39,757 nucleotides of DNA from a virus. Lineage: Duplodnaviria > Heunggongvirae > Uroviricota > Caudoviricetes. Below are positions 5,012 through 35,705 of the stretch, in pieces. The notes under the pieces are model-generated. The model made no database searches. It saw nothing but the letters and a program-made list of their open reading frames with translations, and was not told the DNA's origin. Each line of letters starts with the position of its first letter. Position 1 is the first letter of the stretch. The position numbers and the translations under genes were made by a program. The DNA lies in the IMG/VR virus record IMGVR_UViG_2541047752_000002; one strand, 5' to 3'.

Positions 5012-5374
5012 TTAACGACCTGCTGCGCGGAGTTTTCCGTCAGGTTCACCGGCAAGAGTCAGTAATTGTCCCTGGTCTTCCTGCAGAATAGTCAGGCGAC
5101 CACCGCGATTGACATACATCGGCGTTTCGGTGGTGTCTTCTTCGGAAATTTTCCCGCGGTTAGTCGGGCGAATATATGAGAGTTTGTGTTTGATTTTCAC
5201 ACGGTTCTCATCAAATGGTTCGATTTCCAGGTTGAGTGAGACCTTACCTTTGGTTTTCGTGTTCATCACACCGGAAGCGACTTCACTGAGAACTGCGCCG
5301 ATTTTGGTTTCAAATACGCCGCCGTCCAGCTCCCCGATAAATGCCTGCACATCAGTACTGCGTTCGCTAGCCAT
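5012..5374 (-). CDS. Early-left hypothetical protein (120 aa, YfdP-like)
   Basis: Start assigned to ATG at 5374 preceded by AGGAG 7 nt upstream; the 226-aa track ORF is an upstream run-on into GC-rich non-coding DNA. Confidence 0.6.
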   Translation of the reverse strand: MASERSTDVQAFIGELDGGVFETKIGAVLSEVASGVMNTKTKGKVSLNLEIEPFDENRVKIKHKLSYIRPTNRGKISEEDTTETPMYVNRGGRLTILQEDQGQLLTLAGEPDGKLRAAGR

Positions 5375-5392
5375 TTTGCTGCTCCTCATCAT

Positions 5393-5843
5393 ATCGACCC
5401 TGCAAGGCCGATTAGTTTCTCCACAAAACAGAGAAGAACACCTGTGGTGGCCGCCGCCCGGATGGATTGGGTTATGAGCCCGTCGTCCGGTGATGCTCTT
5501 CTCTGTTTTGTAAAAAGGACGGTACCAGCCGGAAGCAAGGGTACAAGCTGGTACCGCCAGGACTACACACAGCATAAAGTTGTGGTGCCGGGTGCCTCCC
5601 GGTGCCTGGCGAAGGTTGCACACCAGGCGGGTGGGTATCCACAGAAGGTCGACTGTCAGCCTCAACCTTAACCCGCGTGCGCTGAGCCGCATTCACCACA
5701 ACGCTAAGGATTCTCTCTGGTTGAAAATACTTAGCTGTTATGTGCCTGCTTTTAGCCACATCAGGCGAGGTGGACCTGGTTATTCCCCAACAACAAGGAT
5801 TTGGTTAATCTGGATATCCCCAACAACTAGCTGAGTATTCAAC
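5393..5843 (-). other. GC-rich untranslated leader with long inverted repeats (candidate structured RNA element of the leftward early transcript)
   Basis: No ORF with a credible start or Shine-Dalgarno; 16-bp inverted repeat ACAAAACAGAGAAGAA (5423-5440) with its complement (5494-5512); 9-bp stem GGTACCAGC/GCTGGTACC (5521-5555); direct repeat TCCCCAACAAC at 5784 and 5816. Confidence 0.4.
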
Positions 5844-6365
5844 GTGATAGCTGAACTGTCTGCGGCTATGGCCGCTATAAAGGAGACTGCCGGTCTTGCT
5901 AAGGTTATTAATGACGCGAAAACGGATGCAGAAGTTAAAGCTGCAACCATTGAACTCCAGAACAAACTAATCACGCTTCAGGCAGAATGCTTCTCTCTTG
6001 GCGATGCGATCCGCCTTCGTGATGAAGAGGTGATGCATCTCAAAGCAAAAATTGCAGAGTTTGAAGATTTTTGTGCCAAGGTAGAAGGATATGTCCTTGA
6101 TCAGCTTGACTCTGGTGCTTTTGTTTACTCTAAAAATGAAATTGTGAGTGGAAAAGAAATAACTGTGCATCTGTGCCCACTTTGTTATTCCAAAAATATA
6201 AAATCGATACTTCATCCGCTTCCAGTAGGTAAAACTTCTCATTTTCTTACAAGCCGTTGCCTTCACTGTGAAAATAAATTTCTTATGGAAAAAAATCCGA
6301 TGTACGAACGACCAAGATCATTACGTGAGTTGGGGCGAGATCTGAATTCGCCTTGGATTCCTTAA
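5844..6365 (+). CDS. Hypothetical coiled-coil protein with C-terminal Cys4 zinc ribbon; opposite-strand moron in the immunity region
   Basis: 173-aa ORF (GTG 5844 or ATG 5868); CPLC…(x29)…CLHC motif; AT-rich 3' half; own intrinsic terminator at 6408-6431; antisense to the leftward early operon. Confidence 0.55.
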   Translation: MIAELSAAMAAIKETAGLAKVINDAKTDAEVKAATIELQNKLITLQAECFSLGDAIRLRDEEVMHLKAKIAEFEDFCAKVEGYVLDQLDSGAFVYSKNEIVSGKEITVHLCPLCYSKNIKSILHPLPVGKTSHFLTSRCLHCENKFLMEKNPMYERPRSLRELGRDLNSPWIP

Positions 6366-6406: not shown

Positions 6407-6407
6407 A

Positions 6408-6431
6408 AGCGTCCTGTAGGGCGCTTTTTTG
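6408..6431 (+). terminator. Intrinsic terminator of the zinc-ribbon moron gene
   Basis: Hairpin AGCGTCCT-GTAG-GGCGCT followed by TTTTTTGTT. Confidence 0.65.
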
Positions 6432-6582: not shown

Positions 6583-7257
6583 TTAGGCTTTGATTTTGTA
6601 TCTTCTTGGTTTTCCTGAGAAAATCACAGTTCCAATTATAGAGCAATTACCGTTGATCTTAATGTAAGGCTCAGGCCAGTTTGGGTTTAACGCTTTGAGA
6701 TAACGCTGTGTCCCATCTTCTATCAACCTTTTGAAGGTGGTTTCACCTGTATCGTGCATCAATGCAATAACGTCGTCACCGTGGCAGGCAGGTACTTCAG
6801 GATCGACAAAAATCATGTCTCCCGGGCGGTACTCATCAATCATTGAATCACCTATCACCCGCAAGATATAAGTCATTTCCCCACAGGGTACAGGGCAGGG
6901 ATACGTTTCTGCTGTGCTCAAATCAACCTCAGAATATCCAACTTCTTTCCATGCTCCGGCCTGTACCCATGATATGACAGGGACTAATGTGATTTGTTTA
7001 TTAGTGATTGAAACATCAGGTTTTTTTGTGATGTTCGTTGTCTGGTGTTCTTGATCGAGCCATCCGACAGGCAGGTCGAAACATTTTTCGATGTGTCGTG
7101 CCATGCTGTCACCGATATTTTTAGTAGCACCATCTCCCATAAACCTGCTGGTCTGGGTTGGCTCGCGATCAATCATAGTGGCAAAGGAAGAATTCCCGCC
7201 AACACCATCTCTCAGTTTTCTGGCGTTAGACCGCCGGATGTCATGGATTGTTTTCAT
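6583..7257 (-). CDS. CI-like prophage repressor (HTH plus S24/LexA-type autopeptidase domain)
   Basis: 224-aa ORF; C-terminal S24 peptidase signature (…VIGDSMIDEYRPGDMIFVDP…); divergent from cro across an operator-rich intergenic region; no Shine-Dalgarno, so probably leaderless. Confidence 0.85.
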   Translation of the reverse strand: MKTIHDIRRSNARKLRDGVGGNSSFATMIDREPTQTSRFMGDGATKNIGDSMARHIEKCFDLPVGWLDQEHQTTNITKKPDVSITNKQITLVPVISWVQAGAWKEVGYSEVDLSTAETYPCPVPCGEMTYILRVIGDSMIDEYRPGDMIFVDPEVPACHGDDVIALMHDTGETTFKRLIEDGTQRYLKALNPNWPEPYIKINGNCSIIGTVIFSGKPRRYKIKA

Positions 7258-26704: not shown

Positions 26705-27060
26705 TGGCCCGTATCGGGGGAACCTGTTATTTCAAAATTGACGGTCAGCAGCTATCGCTGACCGGCGGCATTGAGGTGCCTATGAACAGGACGGTCAATG
26801 ATGACATCATCGGCCTGGACGGTTCAGTGGACCGCAAGGAAACTCACCGTGCGCCTTATGTCAAAGGGACCTTCAAGGTGCCGAAGAATTTTCCGGTGAG
26901 CAAAATCACCTCGTCTGATGAGATGACCATCACTGCCGAGCTGGCGAACGGTCAGGTCTATGTATTGTCGTCAGCCTGGCTGCACGGCGAAGCGAACCAT
27001 AATGCCGAAGAAGGTACGGTTGATCTTGAGTTCCACGGTGAAGAAGGGGATTACCAGTAA
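26704..27060 (+). CDS. Tail tube protein
   Basis: 118-aa ORF directly after the sheath gene. Confidence 0.8.
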   Translation: MARIGGTCYFKIDGQQLSLTGGIEVPMNRTVNDDIIGLDGSVDRKETHRAPYVKGTFKVPKNFPVSKITSSDEMTITAELANGQVYVLSSAWLHGEANHNAEEGTVDLEFHGEEGDYQ

Positions 27061-27329
27061 TGAAAGAGCTTGAGTTAAAGAAACCGATTATCGCTCATGG
27101 CGAGACACTCTCCGTACTGGAGTTTGATGAACCCACCGGGAAGGATGTCCGCGAGCTGGGGTATCCCTACCAGATGAATCAGGATGAGTCCGTCAGACTT
27201 CTGGCGCATGTGGTGTCGAAATACATTGTGCGGCTGGCGAAAGTGCCGCAAAGCTCTGTCGACCAGATGTCTCCGGCAGACCTGAATGCAGCGGCGTGGC
27301 TTGTGGCTGGTTTTTTCCTCCAGGCCTGA
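27060..27329 (+). CDS. Tail assembly chaperone (short form)
   Basis: 89-aa ORF upstream of the tape measure gene; contains slippery heptamer T_TTT_TTC at 27311-27317. Confidence 0.7.
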   Translation: MKELELKKPIIAHGETLSVLEFDEPTGKDVRELGYPYQMNQDESVRLLAHVVSKYIVRLAKVPQSSVDQMSPADLNAAAWLVAGFFLQA

Positions 27330-27478
27330 CGGCTGAATACCTCACTGATCGCTTCTTTGACTGCGCCAGCTACTGGCGCATTAATCCCTTCGAATTGCTG
27401 AATATGCCGATCAGTGAAATTCCCTTGCTGGTCAGTCAGGCAAACAGGATAGAGCAGGAGAAACGCACACATGGCTGA
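27060..27478 (+). CDS. Tail assembly chaperone, long form by programmed -1 frameshift at 27311-27317
   Basis: The -1 frame continues open from the slippery site to 27478 (track ORF 27296-27478), ending just inside the tape measure gene. Confidence 0.6.
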
Positions 27479-29306
27479 ATTTGAGCTTAAGGCGTTGATC
27501 ACCGGTGTCGACAGGCTTTCTCCCGCGCTGTCGAAAATGCAAAAGAAAATCCGGGGATTTAAACGCCAGGCGGAAGAAGCGTCACAGGGTGGGCTGGCGC
27601 TTGGTGGCGGACTGGCTGCGGGTCTGACGCTTTCCCTGAAATCTTATGCCGATCAGGAAAACGCCGCCACCGGGCTGAAAGTCGCCATGATGGATGCGAA
27701 CGGCGAGGTTGGAAAGAGCTTTCAGGACATCAATAAACTGGCTATTGGTCTGGGTAACCAGCTACCCGGTACAACGGCTGATTTCCAGAACATGATGCAG
27801 ATGCTGGTGCGTCAGGGGATCCCGGCAGAAAACATTCTGGGTGGTGTGGGTAAAGCGACAGCTTATCTTGCGGTACAACTGAAAAAAACACCGGAAGCGG
27901 CTGCTGAGTTTGCTGCAAAGATGCAGGATGCTACCGGAACGGCGTCAGAAGACATGATGGGGCTGTTCGACACTATCCAGAAGGCGTTTTATCTGGGCGT
28001 TGACGATACCAACATGTTGTCCTTCTTCACTAAAACCAGTTCTGTTCTGAAGATGGTGAACAAGGACGGTCTTCAGGCTGCACAGAGCCTTGCCCCCATC
28101 AGCGTCATGATGGATCAGATGGGGATGAACGGGGAGTCGGCAGGTAATGCCCTGCGAAAAGTTATCCAGTCCGGATTAAGCGTTAAGAAAATCAGGGACG
28201 TCAATAAAGTCATGGCCCGCCAGAAACTCGGGGTACAGCTCGATTTTACTGACGGCAAAGGAAGTTTTGGCGGTCTTGATAACATGTTCAGGCAACTGGC
28301 AAAGCTGCGAAAACTGACCGACGTTAAGCGAACAGGTGTACTTAAGGCAATATTTGGTGATGATGCCGAAACCCTTCAGGTGGTCAATGCACTAATCGAT
28401 AAAGGAAAGGATGGCTACGATCAGATCCAGCAGAAGATGAATAAACAGGCCAGCCTGAATAAACGTGTTCAGGCCCAGCTTGGTACGCTGTCCAACCTGT
28501 GGGAGGCAATGACGGGGACCGCAACTAACGGCCTTGCGGCTATTGGCGGCGCATTTTCTGGTGACGCTAAAAATATCACGCAATGGCTGGGGGAGTTGGG
28601 GGAAAAATTCACGAAGTTTGCGGATGAAAATCCCCGGGTTATTCGCGGCGTCGTCGGGCTTGCTGCCGGTCTTGCGATTCTGAAACTGGGATTGATGGGC
28701 GTTGGCGGTGCCATCAGTATTGTCAGCAGGATCATGTCGATGACGCCGATTGGCATGATTGCGACGGCGATAGCCCTGGCTGCGGGATTAATTATCACTA
28801 ACTGGGATGCTGTCGGACCTTATTTTAAGAAACTCTGGGAAACCATTGGTCCTTATTTTGAGGCTGGCCGGGAACTCCTTAAGAAAGTTTTTGCCTGGTC
28901 GCCGCTGGGGATGGTGATCAATAACTGGGGGCCGGTTGTTAAGTGGTTTCAGGATATGTGGGACAAGCTGAAGCCAATTATTGAGTGGTTTACCGACAGT
29001 TACGGTTACACGGTCGATGCCATTAACTCTGCGCAGTGGGGCGCGGGTGCTTATGATGCTTATGGGACGGGAATACCGGCGCGGGGATACACACCTTATC
29101 CGGCGGTGGATCCGGCTCAGTCAAACAACGCCTCCGATGCCACAGGCCCGAATCCCTTCATGATTAACAAAGCTTCTGCGCCAAAAGTTGATGGTGAGAT
29201 CAAGGTCTCTTTTGTGAATTCGCCTCCGGGTATGCGGGTTATGGAAACGCGATCCAGCGGTTTTGATGTCAGCCATGATGTTGGCTATACGCGCTTTGGC
29301 AGGTAA
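27471..29306 (+). CDS. Tail tape measure protein
   Basis: 611-aa ORF with hydrophobic glycine-rich segment, after the chaperone pair. Confidence 0.85.
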   Translation: MAEFELKALITGVDRLSPALSKMQKKIRGFKRQAEEASQGGLALGGGLAAGLTLSLKSYADQENAATGLKVAMMDANGEVGKSFQDINKLAIGLGNQLPGTTADFQNMMQMLVRQGIPAENILGGVGKATAYLAVQLKKTPEAAAEFAAKMQDATGTASEDMMGLFDTIQKAFYLGVDDTNMLSFFTKTSSVLKMVNKDGLQAAQSLAPISVMMDQMGMNGESAGNALRKVIQSGLSVKKIRDVNKVMARQKLGVQLDFTDGKGSFGGLDNMFRQLAKLRKLTDVKRTGVLKAIFGDDAETLQVVNALIDKGKDGYDQIQQKMNKQASLNKRVQAQLGTLSNLWEAMTGTATNGLAAIGGAFSGDAKNITQWLGELGEKFTKFADENPRVIRGVVGLAAGLAILKLGLMGVGGAISIVSRIMSMTPIGMIATAIALAAGLIITNWDAVGPYFKKLWETIGPYFEAGRELLKKVFAWSPLGMVINNWGPVVKWFQDMWDKLKPIIEWFTDSYGYTVDAINSAQWGAGAYDAYGTGIPARGYTPYPAVDPAQSNNASDATGPNPFMINKASAPKVDGEIKVSFVNSPPGMRVMETRSSGFDVSHDVGYTRFGR

Positions 29307-33789: not shown

Positions 33790-34364
33790 CAAACGATGAT
33801 TATATCCGTCTGTTGTCGGCACTGTTGCCGCCCGGTCCGGCGTGGTCAGTCAGCGATCCGGCGATTGCCGGTGCGGCACCGTCATTAACCCGCGTTCATC
33901 AGCGTGCGGATGCCCTGATGCGGGAGCTGGATCCGCGCACCACCACTGAACTGATAAACCGCTGGGAGCGTCTGTGCGGTCTGCCGGATGAATGTATTCC
34001 CGCAGGGACACAGACCCTTCGTCAGCGTCAGCAACGGCTGGATGCGAAGGTTAACCTGGCGGGCAGCATCAACGAGAATTTTTATCTTGCACAGCTTGCT
34101 GCCCTGGGCAGACCAGATGCCAACATCACGCGATACGACAAAAGCACGTTCACCTGCTCATCGGCCTGTACTGGCGCGGTGAATGCGCCGGAATGGCGGT
34201 ATTACTGGCAGGTCAACATGCCAGCTGCCACCAACACCACCTGGATGACATGTGGCGATCCCTGTGATTCCGCACTGCGTATCTGGGGCGACACCGTTGT
34301 CGAGTGTGTGCTTAACAAACTCTGCCCGTCGCATACCTACGTAATTTTTAAATATCCGGAGTAA
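33780..34364 (+). CDS. Tail protein (Mu gp48/YmfQ-like)
   Basis: 194-aa ORF immediately upstream of the tail fibre gene. Confidence 0.6.
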
Positions 34365-35300: not shown

Positions 35301-35705
35301 ATGAATGATGTTTATGCAGTTGTTGATAATAACGTTGTTATTAATGTCATTATCTGGGACGGAATTTCTGAATGGAAACCAGAGGCTGGTAATTTAGTTC
35401 CGTTAAACGGCGATGCTGGCATCGGTTGGTCATATTCAGACGGAGTATTTACCGCGCCACCTCCCCCAGAACGCTCTCACAACGCGTTAGTTGCGGAGGC
35501 TGAGCTGCAGAAATCAGCACTACTGACCGTAGCAAATAACGCAATAGCACCGCTGCAGGATGCCGTTGATTTGGAAATGGCGACAGACGATGAACAGACG
35601 TTACTGCTGGCGTGGAAAAAATACAGGGTACTGCTGAACCGTGTTGATACCTCAGCGGCACCCGAAATAGAGTGGCCTACGCAACCGGGGGAGCGGGCCA
35701 GTTGA
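35301..35705 (+). CDS. Tail fibre assembly protein
   Basis: 134-aa ORF after the tail fibre; C-terminus …[12 protein letters not shown] typical of tail fibre assembly proteins. Confidence 0.75.

Follow-up and report, generated by a model that had tools for sequence, protein, structure and literature searches.

The STnc100 family of prophage RNAs is known but functionally uncharacterised. Its stand-alone members occupy the interval that separates Q or stx from the lysis genes (PMC12370729), accumulate as discrete terminated sRNAs (PMC5331693, PMC8550237) and are seen as full-length species of ~160-210 nt (PMC5331693). Multiple copies are transcribed in EDL933, one of them confirmed by Northern blot (PMC5331693), and the Hfq-binding sRNA EcOnc27 partially overlaps a predicted STnc100 element downstream of stx2B (PMC12711010). 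PasD, reported to be related to STnc100 (bioRxiv 10.64898/2026.05.13.724894), depends on Hfq for its stability and has RIL-seq partners (PMC8550237). Two other RNAs of lambdoid phages are useful for comparison. DicF is an intra-operonic RNA of an early-left operon and ends at a terminator that the operon must read through; a 72-nt species made by RNase III is reported, which exceeds the 53-nt form by 19 nt (PMC9438474). The put RNAs, as in HK022, are ~70 nt long with two stem-loops (PMC9378689) and stand at the start of the transcript.

Here, we describe a promoter-less, operon-embedded variant of the STnc100 family, which is new. The window that we analysed is a stretch of 39,757 nucleotides from a virus of the Caudoviricetes (IMG/VR record IMGVR_UViG_2541047752_000002). 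It represents an SfIV/e14-type lambdoid prophage with cI, cro and a CII-like gene, in which 5773-5375 on the minus strand forms the early-left operon leader. Downstream of cI there is a terminator-like hairpin (6571-6552), directly followed by the putative PL promoter, TTGACA-16-CATAAT at 6543-6516 on the minus strand (11/12 match, with GTACC-containing repeats), which is the sole strong leftward promoter candidate upstream of the element. The initial annotation had located PL here and the first early-left gene start at 5374, and both assignments are supported, the latter by the 120-aa product of the gene, which matches phrog_204 from its first residue, and by homologues annotated at 363-372 nt. 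As it had also stated, the interval from PL to the early-left genes contains no evident N-like gene, and the leader is GC rich (54-58.5% GC over 5300-5800 vs 35-50% in the flanks). Its description of the whole interval from PL to 5375 as free of credible ORFs is right for 5375-5843 but not beyond, where a plus-strand gene at 5844-6365 matches phrog_1244 (E=3e-52). Next to the region is a slot that accepts different cassette genes.

Our analysis reveals that 5375-5843 is a real, conserved, pseudoknotted non-coding RNA and not a decayed gene. The idea of a structured RNA in the leftward early leader was therefore correct, and of the possibilities raised by the initial annotation a processed ncRNA fits best. 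The inverted and direct repeats on which that idea was built are all present, with small corrections. The long inverted repeat spans 18 nt, not 16 bp (arms 5423-5440 and 5494-5511, 94% complementary, with 53 nt between them), and the perfect stem has 10 bp, not 9 (5520-5529 with 5547-5556); folding lengthens the latter to ~13 bp, followed by CUUUUUAC. The direct repeat TCCCCAACAAC(A/T)AG occurs at 5784-5797 and 5817-5830, with 93% identity. A third long-range repeat had been missed: 5579-5587 and 5694-5702 match at 9/9 positions and form the closing helix of the RNA core. The minus strand folds with z-scores of -4.0 (5505-5735), -5.0 (5372-5515) and -6.4 (5372-5780), and no shuffled sequence folded as well as the native one in any of these three intervals.

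To which family does this RNA belong? The Rfam scan proposed in the initial annotation found nothing when run on the whole window at gathering thresholds, and the answer came from E-value scans alone. These revealed a match to RF02076 (STnc100) at 5509-5732 on the minus strand, which spans the full model (1-206) with 42.4 bits (E=2e-7 for the region alone, 5e-6 window-wide) and does not reach the gathering score of 47. Since the window copy is below the curated cut-off, standard pipelines leave the element unannotated. All members of the subfamily that we call "GCGG" scored 27-42 bits with this model. The near-invariant motifs GGUGAAU and ACCGGGARGCACCCGGCACC are common to more than 100 viral contigs, and the family motif GGUGAAU ... 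CACCGGGAGGCACCCGGCACC is exact in the window at 5608-5589 on the minus strand, closed by helix P1. With STnc100 and PasD the element shares these motifs, helices P1, P2, P4 and P5, the pseudoknot, a single-stranded spacer followed by an intrinsic terminator, and a prophage location. It is a divergent STnc100 relative joined to a DicF-like terminator module, and constitutes one complete unit of a promoter-less subfamily of STnc100/PasD prophage sRNAs. It differs from the rest of the family in its helix P2, which reads GCGGC...GC(A)CGC here and CCCCC...GG(A)GGG elsewhere, in the P0 hairpin that precedes the core, and in its place inside the early-left operon downstream of cI. It also differs in its dependence on an external promoter: a sigma-70 match of at least 9/12 upstream was found in 0/44 members of the "GCGG" subfamily, whereas under strict criteria 25/100 stand-alone relatives have a sigma-70 promoter abutting P1 (a terminator is present in 77/100 of these relatives, at a median of 31 nt after P5). 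In the window, a search of 5733-5860 on either strand found no sigma-70 promoter, and there is none upstream of P1 or P0.

In the core of the element (~124 nt, 5579-5702 on the minus strand), helix P1 pairs 5702-5694 with 5587-5579 and covaries, with UA, CG and UG at one pair. It encloses P2 (5691-5674, with a bulged A), P4 (5628-5604) and P5 (5602-5588, CCGGG-AGGCA-CCCGG), and a pseudoknot joins AAGGUUG (5669-5663) to CAACCUU (5618-5612) in the P4 loop. The covariation check that the initial annotation had suggested, made on an alignment of 28 sequences, shows that P1, P2 and P5 covary. Together with one pseudoknot register they are 86.1% paired, vs 31-46% when the partners are slid, and their covariation score is 0.189 vs 0.109 (0/500 shuffles). 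Within the family, the helix sequence of P2 takes five or more forms. At P4, 88% of 91 distinct sequences form a stem of 6 bp or longer, vs 19% of shuffles, and 65 different stems are seen. Three subgroups of the MAFFT alignment are each offset by one column at the pseudoknot, giving 54% paired in one register. Because these offsets barred a count in a single register, we used a register-free permutation test, in which matched strands paired over a mean of 6.86 nt, vs 5.07 for mismatched ones (0/5000 permutations). The pseudoknot is thus family-wide and adds to the known structure, since it is not in the consensus structure line of RF02076. Two other classes of structured RNA were considered. 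A tRNA-like reading was dropped, since ARAGORN on 5200-6000 found no tRNA or tmRNA gene and there was no Rfam tRNA match; we consider a self-cleaving ribozyme unlikely, given the full-length ~160-210-nt species reported for stand-alone members (PMC5331693).

Upstream of the core, the leader is made of recognisable modules. A conserved 5' block, CCACCUCGCCUGAUGUGGCUAAAAGCAGGC (5744-5773, minus strand), may form a small hairpin or an interleaved pseudoknot; the candidate pairings, CCAC/GUGG and GCCUG/CAGGC, are read from the sequence and not from covariation. This block is kept in SfIV-like loci, phiES15, e14 and loci L009 and L021, with changes confined to the loops; in phage P1 and Pantoea relatives, a simple GC hairpin stands in its place. 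The block fills the position of the terminator hairpin of tandem family arrays, but without a U-tract. Next comes a linker, ACAUAACAG (5735-5743, minus strand), with the consensus ACAnAACAG. This sequence recurs after each family hairpin or terminator, including that of the window, where it appears at 5511-5503 as ACAAAACAG, and it precedes the pre-core hairpin in phage P1, L091, phiES15, ST64B and L026. Directly 5' of the core, the minimum free energy fold includes the P0 hairpin (5703-5735, minus strand, GCUAAGUAUUUUC ... GAGAAUCCUUAGC), whose equivalents covary (GAAGCGCAUU/AAUGCGCUUC in phiES15, AAGAGCAUUC/GAAUGCUCUU in phage P1). The sequence UGCUCUUU just 5' of the core of phage P1 resembles boxA, a reading that we dropped because it is the 3' arm of this covarying hairpin.

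Downstream of the core lies a single-stranded spacer, UUUAUGCUGUGUGUAGUC (5561-5578, minus strand), which is unpaired in the folds and is a candidate seed or Hfq/RNase E site. Its conserved part, UUGCUGUGU, is found directly 5' of the terminator hairpin in ST64B, phiES15 and loci L020, L068, L091 and L080, and also at the DicF position of the Shigella prophage L133. Within the window, a search for seed targets among ribosome-binding sites gave a best duplex of -22.7 kcal/mol, which 88/100 shuffled seeds equalled or bettered, and a search for exact or near-exact antisense matches found the seed itself alone. The spacer leads into an intrinsic terminator, tL0 (5512-5558, minus strand), with the stem GGCGGUACCAGC/GCUGGUACCGUC. 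Its hairpin (5558-5518) and U5 tract (5516-5512) begin ~20 nt after P1 and align to the terminator positions of the STnc100 model; a simple terminator scan missed it because the loop has 17 nt. Only the minus strand has a U-tract after the hairpin. In ST64B the stem differs in sequence yet pairs (GUCGGCGUC/GACGCCGAC), and CUUUUUAC is kept.

This terminator module brings the element close to DicF. Both are intra-operonic RNAs of the early-left operon of a lambdoid prophage, both end at a terminator that the operon must read through, and the 5' arms of their terminators are similar (UGGCGGUACCAG vs UGGCGGUAUCAG). The Rfam DicF model (RF00039) scores 15.9 bits at 5517-5571 (E=2.8), below its gathering score of 48; Qin DicF scores 76.7 bits and the Shigella variant carrying UUGCUGUGU 28.6 bits. 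The two RNAs differ in the single-stranded segment, which is UUGCUGUGU here and UUUCUGGUGACG in DicF, and in the order of their parts. The order in the window is core, seed and terminator, whereas in Qin DicF comes first, with a core of the "GCGG" subfamily directly behind it and dicB after that. A 21-bp helix, ending just before the dicB Shine-Dalgarno sequence, closes the Qin core and fits the long-known RNase III-dependent 72-nt DicF species. The ban operon of phage P1 also has both a dicF-like region and a core.

The terminator is followed by a long hairpin, I1 (5423-5511, minus strand; inner motif ACGGGCUCAUAACCCAAUC), of 20 bp, or up to 24 with G-U pairs (z=-5.0). It shows compensatory and G-U changes relative to ST64B and aligns with the pre-core hairpins of L026 and phage P1, including ACAnAACAG, AAGAG and ACGGGnCUCAUAnCCCAAUC, while GUGGAGAAAC after I1 aligns with GUGGUGAAUG, the start of a core. 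I1 belongs to a truncated second unit as its P0-type hairpin, now within the yfdP-like 5' UTR. It is likely a substrate of RNase III and would be cleaved by it. Like the RNase III hairpins of the lambda N leader and sib, it is a long, near-perfect duplex of a PL leader just upstream of the ribosome-binding site of the first gene, a likeness that follows from what RNase III substrates generally look like; it differs from them in being demonstrably a repeat-unit hairpin of the STnc100 family. The rest of this 5' UTR (5375-5422, minus strand) holds a GGAGAAAC relic, a small hairpin (5412-5393) and the Shine-Dalgarno sequence GAGGAG (5387-5382), next to the start codon at 5374, and is conserved with e14 and ST64B. 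Stx2/Stx2c phages, mEp460 and cdtI, all of which lack the core, share the stretch 5375-5559 with 94-95% identity. This places the terminator in a separate recombination module, and the genes downstream of the element are unrelated (yfdP-like, xis, kil, tciA, dicB and others); for these reasons we dropped a riboswitch as an explanation. At the other end of the region, the two direct repeats, which read GTTGTTGGGGA(A/T)A(A/T)CCAG in full (5784-5830), are not part of the conserved RNA and lie where the plus-strand cassette gene adjoins. They are seen in SfIV-like relatives only, and neither strand has a sigma-70 match there.

Of 5426 complete E. coli genomes examined, about half (2781) have this RNA. 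Relatives of the core occur in ST64B, in phiES15, in phage P1 upstream of tciA, in K-12 e14, where it is annotated as the CDS ymfH, and in the dicF-dicB spacer of K-12. Its placement recurs in loci of four or more immunity types (cI 27-100% identical): the element follows cI at a distance of 0.5-3.3 kb, shares its strand and precedes the early-left genes. At all loci examined, it runs in the same direction as the operon. Its relation to the next gene varies: in Qin, phage P1 and prophages of Klebsiella, Raoultella and Enterobacter the core stands 25-70 nt upstream of an ORF start, without seed or terminator. The literature on ymfH, for which a retron-Sen2 trigger activity is published, and on ST64B sRNAs yielded no end-mapping for this locus.

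How could such an element work? Most likely, it functions as an intra-operonic Hfq-type sRNA combined with an attenuator or processing leader. The explanation that we favour, with moderate confidence, is that of a PL-leader cassette that yields a trans-acting Hfq-type sRNA by termination and processing, with I1 being cut on read-through. Upon loss of the repressor, PL transcripts would cross the plus-strand cassette gene in antisense and enter the element, and many of them would end at the terminator at 5558-5512, thereby attenuating the early-left operon. Since there is no promoter within ~750 nt, the primary transcript would be ~1 kb long and would need processing. Trimming by RNase E and/or RNase III could leave a stable RNA of roughly 170-225 nt, comprising core, seed and terminator, which would bind Hfq and base-pair in trans, like DicF after its release from the dicB operon. 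Transcripts that read through would be cut at the ~20-bp helix of I1, giving an early-left mRNA with a defined 5' end.

Other explanations have to be weighed against this one. A protein, or what is left of one, would account for the CDSs that deposited annotations place here, i.e., SfIV_34 (as an N-terminal extension of the yfdP-like gene), plus-strand SfIV_35 and K-12 e14 ymfH, and for the ORFs of 226, 95, 84 and 75 aa that overlap the region. Yet a Pfam search of these ORFs gave no match, and the match to phrog_204 starts at the first residue of the 120-aa product. No frame is open across the homologous cores, which are 121 to 140 nt long and in several cases have stops in all six frames, the indels relative to ST64B include 1-nt and other non-triplet ones, and conservation tracks the helices, with compensatory and G-U changes. 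This refutes the decayed gene that the initial annotation had kept as its alternative, and we give coding, past or present, almost no credence. It is also very improbable that the element acts as DNA, with the repeats serving as protein-binding sites such as operators or sites of recombination or replication. The direct repeats at 5784-5830 do lack an RNA-level explanation, and the neighbouring slot for varied cassette genes would suit such sites, but the G-U pairs of the stems work only on the minus-strand transcript, the hairpin has its U-tract on that strand alone, and the helices are maintained by compensatory changes and not by sequence identity. The initial annotation had pointed instead to antitermination of the HK022 put type, in which the nascent core would bind RNA polymerase and carry it past 5512-5558 and later terminators, replacing the missing N. 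The element is indeed a leader RNA in an early operon of a lambdoid phage without an evident N gene, its core precedes an intrinsic terminator that stands before all early-left genes, and the constant orientation relative to the operon agrees with this role. However, comparison with the annotated putL of HK639 gave nothing beyond chance 8-10-mers by blastn-short and no hit by nhmmer, and HK639 has both putL (34187-34312) and a separate STnc100-family member at ~44.8 kb, between Q and the holin gene. An Rfam scan of the 23-30 kb segment of HK022, a segment not confirmed to hold PL or putL, found no STnc100-like element. The architecture differs as well, the element being larger than put, multi-helix, pseudoknotted and ~750 nt away from PL. 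Moreover, mEp460, cdtI and the Stx2/Stx2c phages retain the terminator and the 5' UTR without the core, the Qin core lies downstream of the DicF terminator, and stand-alone members stop at terminators of their own, yielding discrete RNAs that accumulate (PMC5331693, PMC8550237). Many of these members lie immediately before lysis genes; constitutive read-through there would presumably do harm. Hence, we regard a put-like mechanism as improbable.

A purely cis-acting leader deserves more consideration and is possible, if unlikely. Core, terminator and hairpins would then set the level, processing and stability of the early-left mRNA, by acting as an attenuator, as an entry site for RNase III/E, as protection of the 5' end or as structure keeping Rho off a long untranslated leader, and any released RNA would be a by-product. 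The subfamily has no promoter of its own and is always inside the early-left operon, no phage target was found for the seed, and in several prophages the core directly precedes an ORF. The position of the 21-bp Qin helix next to the dicB Shine-Dalgarno sequence, and that of the 20-24-bp I1 next to the yfdP ribosome-binding site, point in the same direction. Against this, the ~20 near-invariant nucleotides and the pseudoknot kept across very divergent members exceed the needs of a generic stabiliser, UUGCUGUGU is conserved independently of the downstream gene, and the same core heads stand-alone sRNA genes with promoter and terminator, whose products bind Hfq and have RIL-seq partners (PMC8550237). 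Still, the cores that stand directly 5' of an ORF without seed or terminator suggest that the core may have a cis role of its own. We propose, tentatively and as rather doubtful, that the ~124-nt core may be an autonomous RNA module with its own function and not just the 5' scaffold of an sRNA. Such a module could bind RNase III/E, the ribosome, RNA polymerase or another host factor, or could switch conformation, an idea suggested by the local alternative partner of the pseudoknot strand. It would be deployed at the head of stand-alone sRNAs, in tandem "core-seed-terminator" cassettes of early-left leaders, and directly 5' of host-manipulating genes (dicB and tciA, and kil after a terminator). 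If so, K-12 ymfH and the dicF-dicB spacer would both be unrecognised members, and excision by RNase III would couple the release of the sRNA to the expression of the downstream gene.

Whatever its mode of action, the finding of this RNA has consequences for the annotation and the study of these prophages. A conserved structured RNA replaces spurious CDS calls, including SfIV_34, SfIV_35, K-12 ymfH and "hypothetical protein" entries in many E. coli genomes. The STnc100/PasD family is extended to a promoter-less, operon-embedded subfamily below the Rfam threshold, and is physically linked to DicF by a core inside the well-studied dicF-dicB spacer of K-12. For the expression of early-left genes past leader terminators in lambdoid phages lacking N, the bearing of these results is indirect. 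Finally, Qin and e14 provide experimentally tractable loci in K-12 for asking what the conserved core does.

The region between the early-left promoter and the yfdP-like gene (5375-5843) holds, on the minus strand, a non-coding element of the STnc100 family. At Rfam gathering thresholds there was no match, and the Rfam scan suggested in the initial annotation revealed the relationship only by E-value: the segment 5509-5732(-) matches STnc100 (RF02076) over the full length of the model, scoring 42.4 bits where the gathering score is 47 (E=2e-7 for the region, 5e-6 over the whole window). STnc100 is a family of prophage sRNAs; EDL933 transcribes several of them, and a Northern blot confirmed one (PMC5331693). 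A member has also been predicted about 75 nt downstream of stx2B (PMC12370729), where it partially overlaps the Hfq-binding sRNA EcOnc27 (PMC12711010). A relationship to STnc100 was recently reported for PasD (bioRxiv 10.64898/2026.05.13.724894), an Hfq-stabilised RNA with many RIL-seq partners (PMC8550237).

We collected family members by a pattern scan of IMG/VR with the shared 20-mer ACCGGGARGCACCCGGCACC, and the elements recovered among the matches listed are of two types. In the stand-alone type, P2 is CCCCC...GGAGGGG. Of its 100 distinct copies among the matches listed, 25 carry a sigma-70 match (at least 9/12) right up against the closing helix, and in 77 a terminator follows P5 at a median distance of 31 nt. 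The stand-alone member of HK639 lies between Q and the holin gene, with annotated terminators on both flanks. The window copy belongs to the "GCGG" type, whose P2 is UGCGGC-UNAGC-GC(A)CGCG; none of 44 copies of this type among the matches listed has such an abutting sigma-70 match (at least 9/12). Every "GCGG" member examined scores 27-42 bits, under the Rfam cut-off, and the deposited annotation over these members reads "none," "hypothetical protein," or ymfH.

Read along the minus strand, the element begins with a conserved hairpin block (5773-5744), the linker ACAUAACAG (5743-5735), and the P0 hairpin (5735-5703). The core (5702-5579) is closed by P1 (5702-5694 with 5587-5579) and contains P2 (5691-5674), the pseudoknot strand AAGGUUG (5669-5663), P4 (5628-5604) with the partner CAACCUU inside its loop (5618-5612), and P5 (CCGGG-AGGCA-CCCGG, 5602-5588). 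It is followed by the single-stranded segment UUUAUGCUGUGUGUAGUC (5578-5561), a candidate seed, then by a terminator hairpin (5558-5518) with a U5 tract (5516-5512), the long hairpin I1 (5511-5423), a small hairpin (5412-5393), and the Shine-Dalgarno sequence GAGGAG (5387-5382) of the gene starting at 5374. The inverted and direct repeats described in the initial annotation were all recovered by the repeat search, as arms of 18 nt at 5423-5440 and 5494-5511 (94%, 53 nt apart), a 10/10 pair at 5520-5529 and 5547-5556, and the direct repeat TCCCCAACAAC(A/T)AG at 5784-5797 and 5817-5830; a third inverted pair at 5579-5587 and 5694-5702 (9/9) had been overlooked. The GC content is 54-58.5% over 5300-5800 against 35-50% on either side. 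The minus strand folds with z=-4.0 for 5505-5735, -5.0 for 5372-5515, and -6.4 for 5372-5780, and in each case no dinucleotide shuffle was as stable. The two copies of the direct repeat, GTTGTTGGGGA(A/T)A(A/T)CCAG, are situated just beyond the conserved RNA; they have no promoter match and no likeness to the GTACC-type repeats at PL.

The covariation analysis proposed at the outset supports the structure of the core. It used 28 subfamily sequences from Escherichia, Shigella, Salmonella, Cronobacter, Pantoea, Klebsiella, Raoultella, Enterobacter, Mixta, and P1-like phages, from which RNAalifold recovered P1, P2, and P5, with compensatory changes in 6 of the 20 predicted pairs. Together with one pseudoknot register, these helices are 86.1% paired, against 31-46% with slid partners, and their covariation score of 0.189, against 0.109, was matched by none of 500 shuffles. 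The shape of P2 is kept across the family through at least five different helix sequences, and 88% of 91 distinct sequences form a P4 stem of at least 6 bp, compared with 19% of shuffles, with 65 different stems in all. The P4 loop can pair with the 6-11 nt that follow P2 in almost every lineage, through a different sequence each time: AAGGUUG/CAACCUU in the window, AAGGCUGG/UCAGCCUU in phiES15, AGACUGACA/UGUCAGUCU in Pantoea, CAGUUAA/UUAACUG in Qin, and AUCAGCG/UGCUGGU, CCAGUC/GACUGG, ACUGGAUA/UAUCCAGU, and others in stand-alone members. The single-register count for this pseudoknot is only 54% because the MAFFT alignment sets three subgroups one column apart. The relevant test is thus the register-free permutation, in which matched strands are complementary over 6.86 nt on average and mismatched ones over 5.07 nt; none of 5,000 permutations reached the observed value. 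The pseudoknot is absent from the nested Rfam STnc100 consensus line.

The window represents a lambdoid prophage resembling SfIV and SfV. In BLAST comparisons, the region shares 98% identity with Shigella phage SfIV and 98.9% with PhiR29_1. The cI, cro, and CII-like genes match their counterparts in K-12 e14 at 97-100% identity. Leftward from cI (6583-7257, minus strand) lie a terminator-like hairpin (6571-6552) and the putative PL (6543-6516, minus strand; sigma-70 match 11/12, TTGACA-16-CATAAT). On the same strand, the yfdP-like gene starts at 5374, with phrog_204 aligning from the first residue, and is followed by yfdQ- and yfdR-like genes. The suggestion that no credible ORF lies between PL and 5374 holds for 5375-5843 but not for 5844-6365, where there is a plus-strand gene of 173 aa (phrog_1244) with its own terminator (6407-6426). 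Its product contains CxxC...CxxC motifs, and its N-terminal part is predicted to form a coiled coil. Since this gene stands between PL and the RNA cassette in opposite orientation, transcription from PL must cross it antisense. The slot is filled by different, oppositely oriented cassette genes from one phage to another (SfIV_36, e14 ymfI, and others), and no promoter-like site was found in 5733-5860; PL is therefore the likeliest source of the element's transcription. More than 20 loci of at least four immunity types (cI 27-100% identical) have the element on the cI strand, 0.5-3.3 kb downstream of that gene and ahead of early-left genes that vary.

BLAST also makes recombination modules evident across the region. 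The phages mEp460 and cdtI and many Stx2/Stx2c phages carry the module 5375-5559 (terminator, I1, and yfdP 5' UTR) at 94-95% identity; they lack the core and have different upstream sequence. The core region is common to ST64B (77%), phiES15, and P1-like phages. P1 and an IMG/VR contig (L026) have long "pre-core" hairpins to which I1 can be aligned, sharing ACAnAACAG, AAGAG, the inner ACGGGnCUCAUAnCCCAAUC, and the 3' arm; directly after I1, GUGGAGAAAC aligns with GUGGUGAAUG, the beginning of a core. The 16-bp repeat of the initial annotation is thus the P0 hairpin of a second unit, truncated where its core starts. Some viral contigs among the matches listed carry two or three units within 1 kb. 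The same-strand clusters of two or three family members in about 1 kb of the IMG/VR contigs L018, L014, L076, and L026 suggest tandem arrays of sRNA units.

Qin-type prophages have DicF (Rfam 76.7 bits), then directly a "GCGG" core (34.4 bits), then the dicB start codon. This segment (L137, 7652-7910) is present in 4,631 of 5,426 complete E. coli genomes and is 100% identical in strain ER1709, which we take to be a K-12 derivative. In the fold, the Qin core is closed by a 21-bp helix, GUGAAUUUUGUGAUGUGGUG/CACUGCAUCACAAAAUUCAU, which ends just ahead of the dicB Shine-Dalgarno and starts inside the 19 nt between the ends of the 53-nt and 72-nt DicF species, the latter reportedly made by RNase III (PMC9438474). 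RNase III may cleave this helix, and the arrangement fits the RNase III-dependent 72-nt species. In the window, the terminator 5' arm UGGCGGUACCAG resembles UGGCGGUAUCAG of DicF, but the Rfam DicF score is just 15.9 bits. A Shigella prophage has a DicF-like RNA (28.6 bits) with the window's UUGCUGUGU segment ahead of a core. In the ban operon of P1, a "dicF-like region" is followed 1.2 kb farther on by a core, which is 34 nt upstream of tciA. The core or full unit repeatedly lies just upstream of genes annotated as cell-division inhibitors or related: kil (after a terminator) in phiES15, tciA in P1, and dicB in Qin. On one strand of the Shigella flexneri prophage (L133, 2950-3424), the DicF-like RNA (28.6 bits) is accompanied by the STnc100-like core (29.9), isrK (61.5), and C4 antisense RNA (75.7). 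The rightward operon of ST64B also contains an isrK match (L002, 5231-5307). Elsewhere in the window, at 35468-35656(+), Rfam gives a sub-threshold match to IS009 (48.8 bits, gathering score 117, E=2e-8).

Could the region be coding, or the remnant of a decayed gene, as was initially considered? ORFs overlapping the RNA (the 226-aa extension SfIV_34, the plus-strand SfIV_35, and e14 ymfH) have no Pfam match, homologous cores are 121-140 nt long with stops in all six frames in several, and comparison with ST64B and e14 reveals non-triplet (1-nt) indels, helix-preserving substitutions, and G-U pairs valid solely on the minus-strand transcript, all of which contradict both a coding role and a gene remnant. 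In the SfIV annotation, SfIV_34 (26860-27540) lengthens the yfdP-like gene by about 106 codons across the RNA and SfIV_35 (27428-27772) is called over the core; the extension and the second call are probably spurious. In E. coli K-12, the annotated e14 ymfH (L129, 3002-3313) overlaps a slightly decayed core, with a 1-nt deletion and a G>A change in the near-invariant P5 motif. Overexpression of ymfH triggered the retron-Sen2 toxin RcaT in a published screen (bioRxiv 10.1101/2020.06.22.160242), and the active agent could be the RNA, not the protein.

The element could alternatively act on its own transcript. That it is a put-like antiterminator, as in HK022, seems very improbable: the annotated putL of HK639 has no similarity to it and HK639 holds both elements at separate places, the core is missing from phages that have the same terminator, the Qin core lies downstream of the DicF terminator, and stand-alone members halt at their own terminators (PMC5331693, PMC8550237). 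A purely cis-acting leader is the main rival and a credible one, since the core of Qin, P1, and other prophages stands immediately in front of an ORF, without seed or terminator, and a search of the phage's own ribosome-binding sites found no target. The analysis establishes the family relationship, the structure, the non-coding status, the conserved place in the operon, and the terminator; for the window RNA, we infer promoter usage, processing, Hfq binding, and action in trans. PL transcripts would enter the cassette and many would stop at 5512-5516; trimming would leave a stable core-seed-terminator RNA, an Hfq-type sRNA, like DicF freed from the dicB operon. Read-through transcripts would be cut at I1 to give the early-left mRNA.

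The STnc100 family itself was already known. What is newly seen is a sub-threshold, promoter-less subfamily embedded in operons, together with a pseudoknot shared by the whole family, a repeat-unit architecture that explains the hairpins first noted, the likely mis-annotation of ymfH and the SfIV CDSs, and a physical link to DicF and dicB in K-12.
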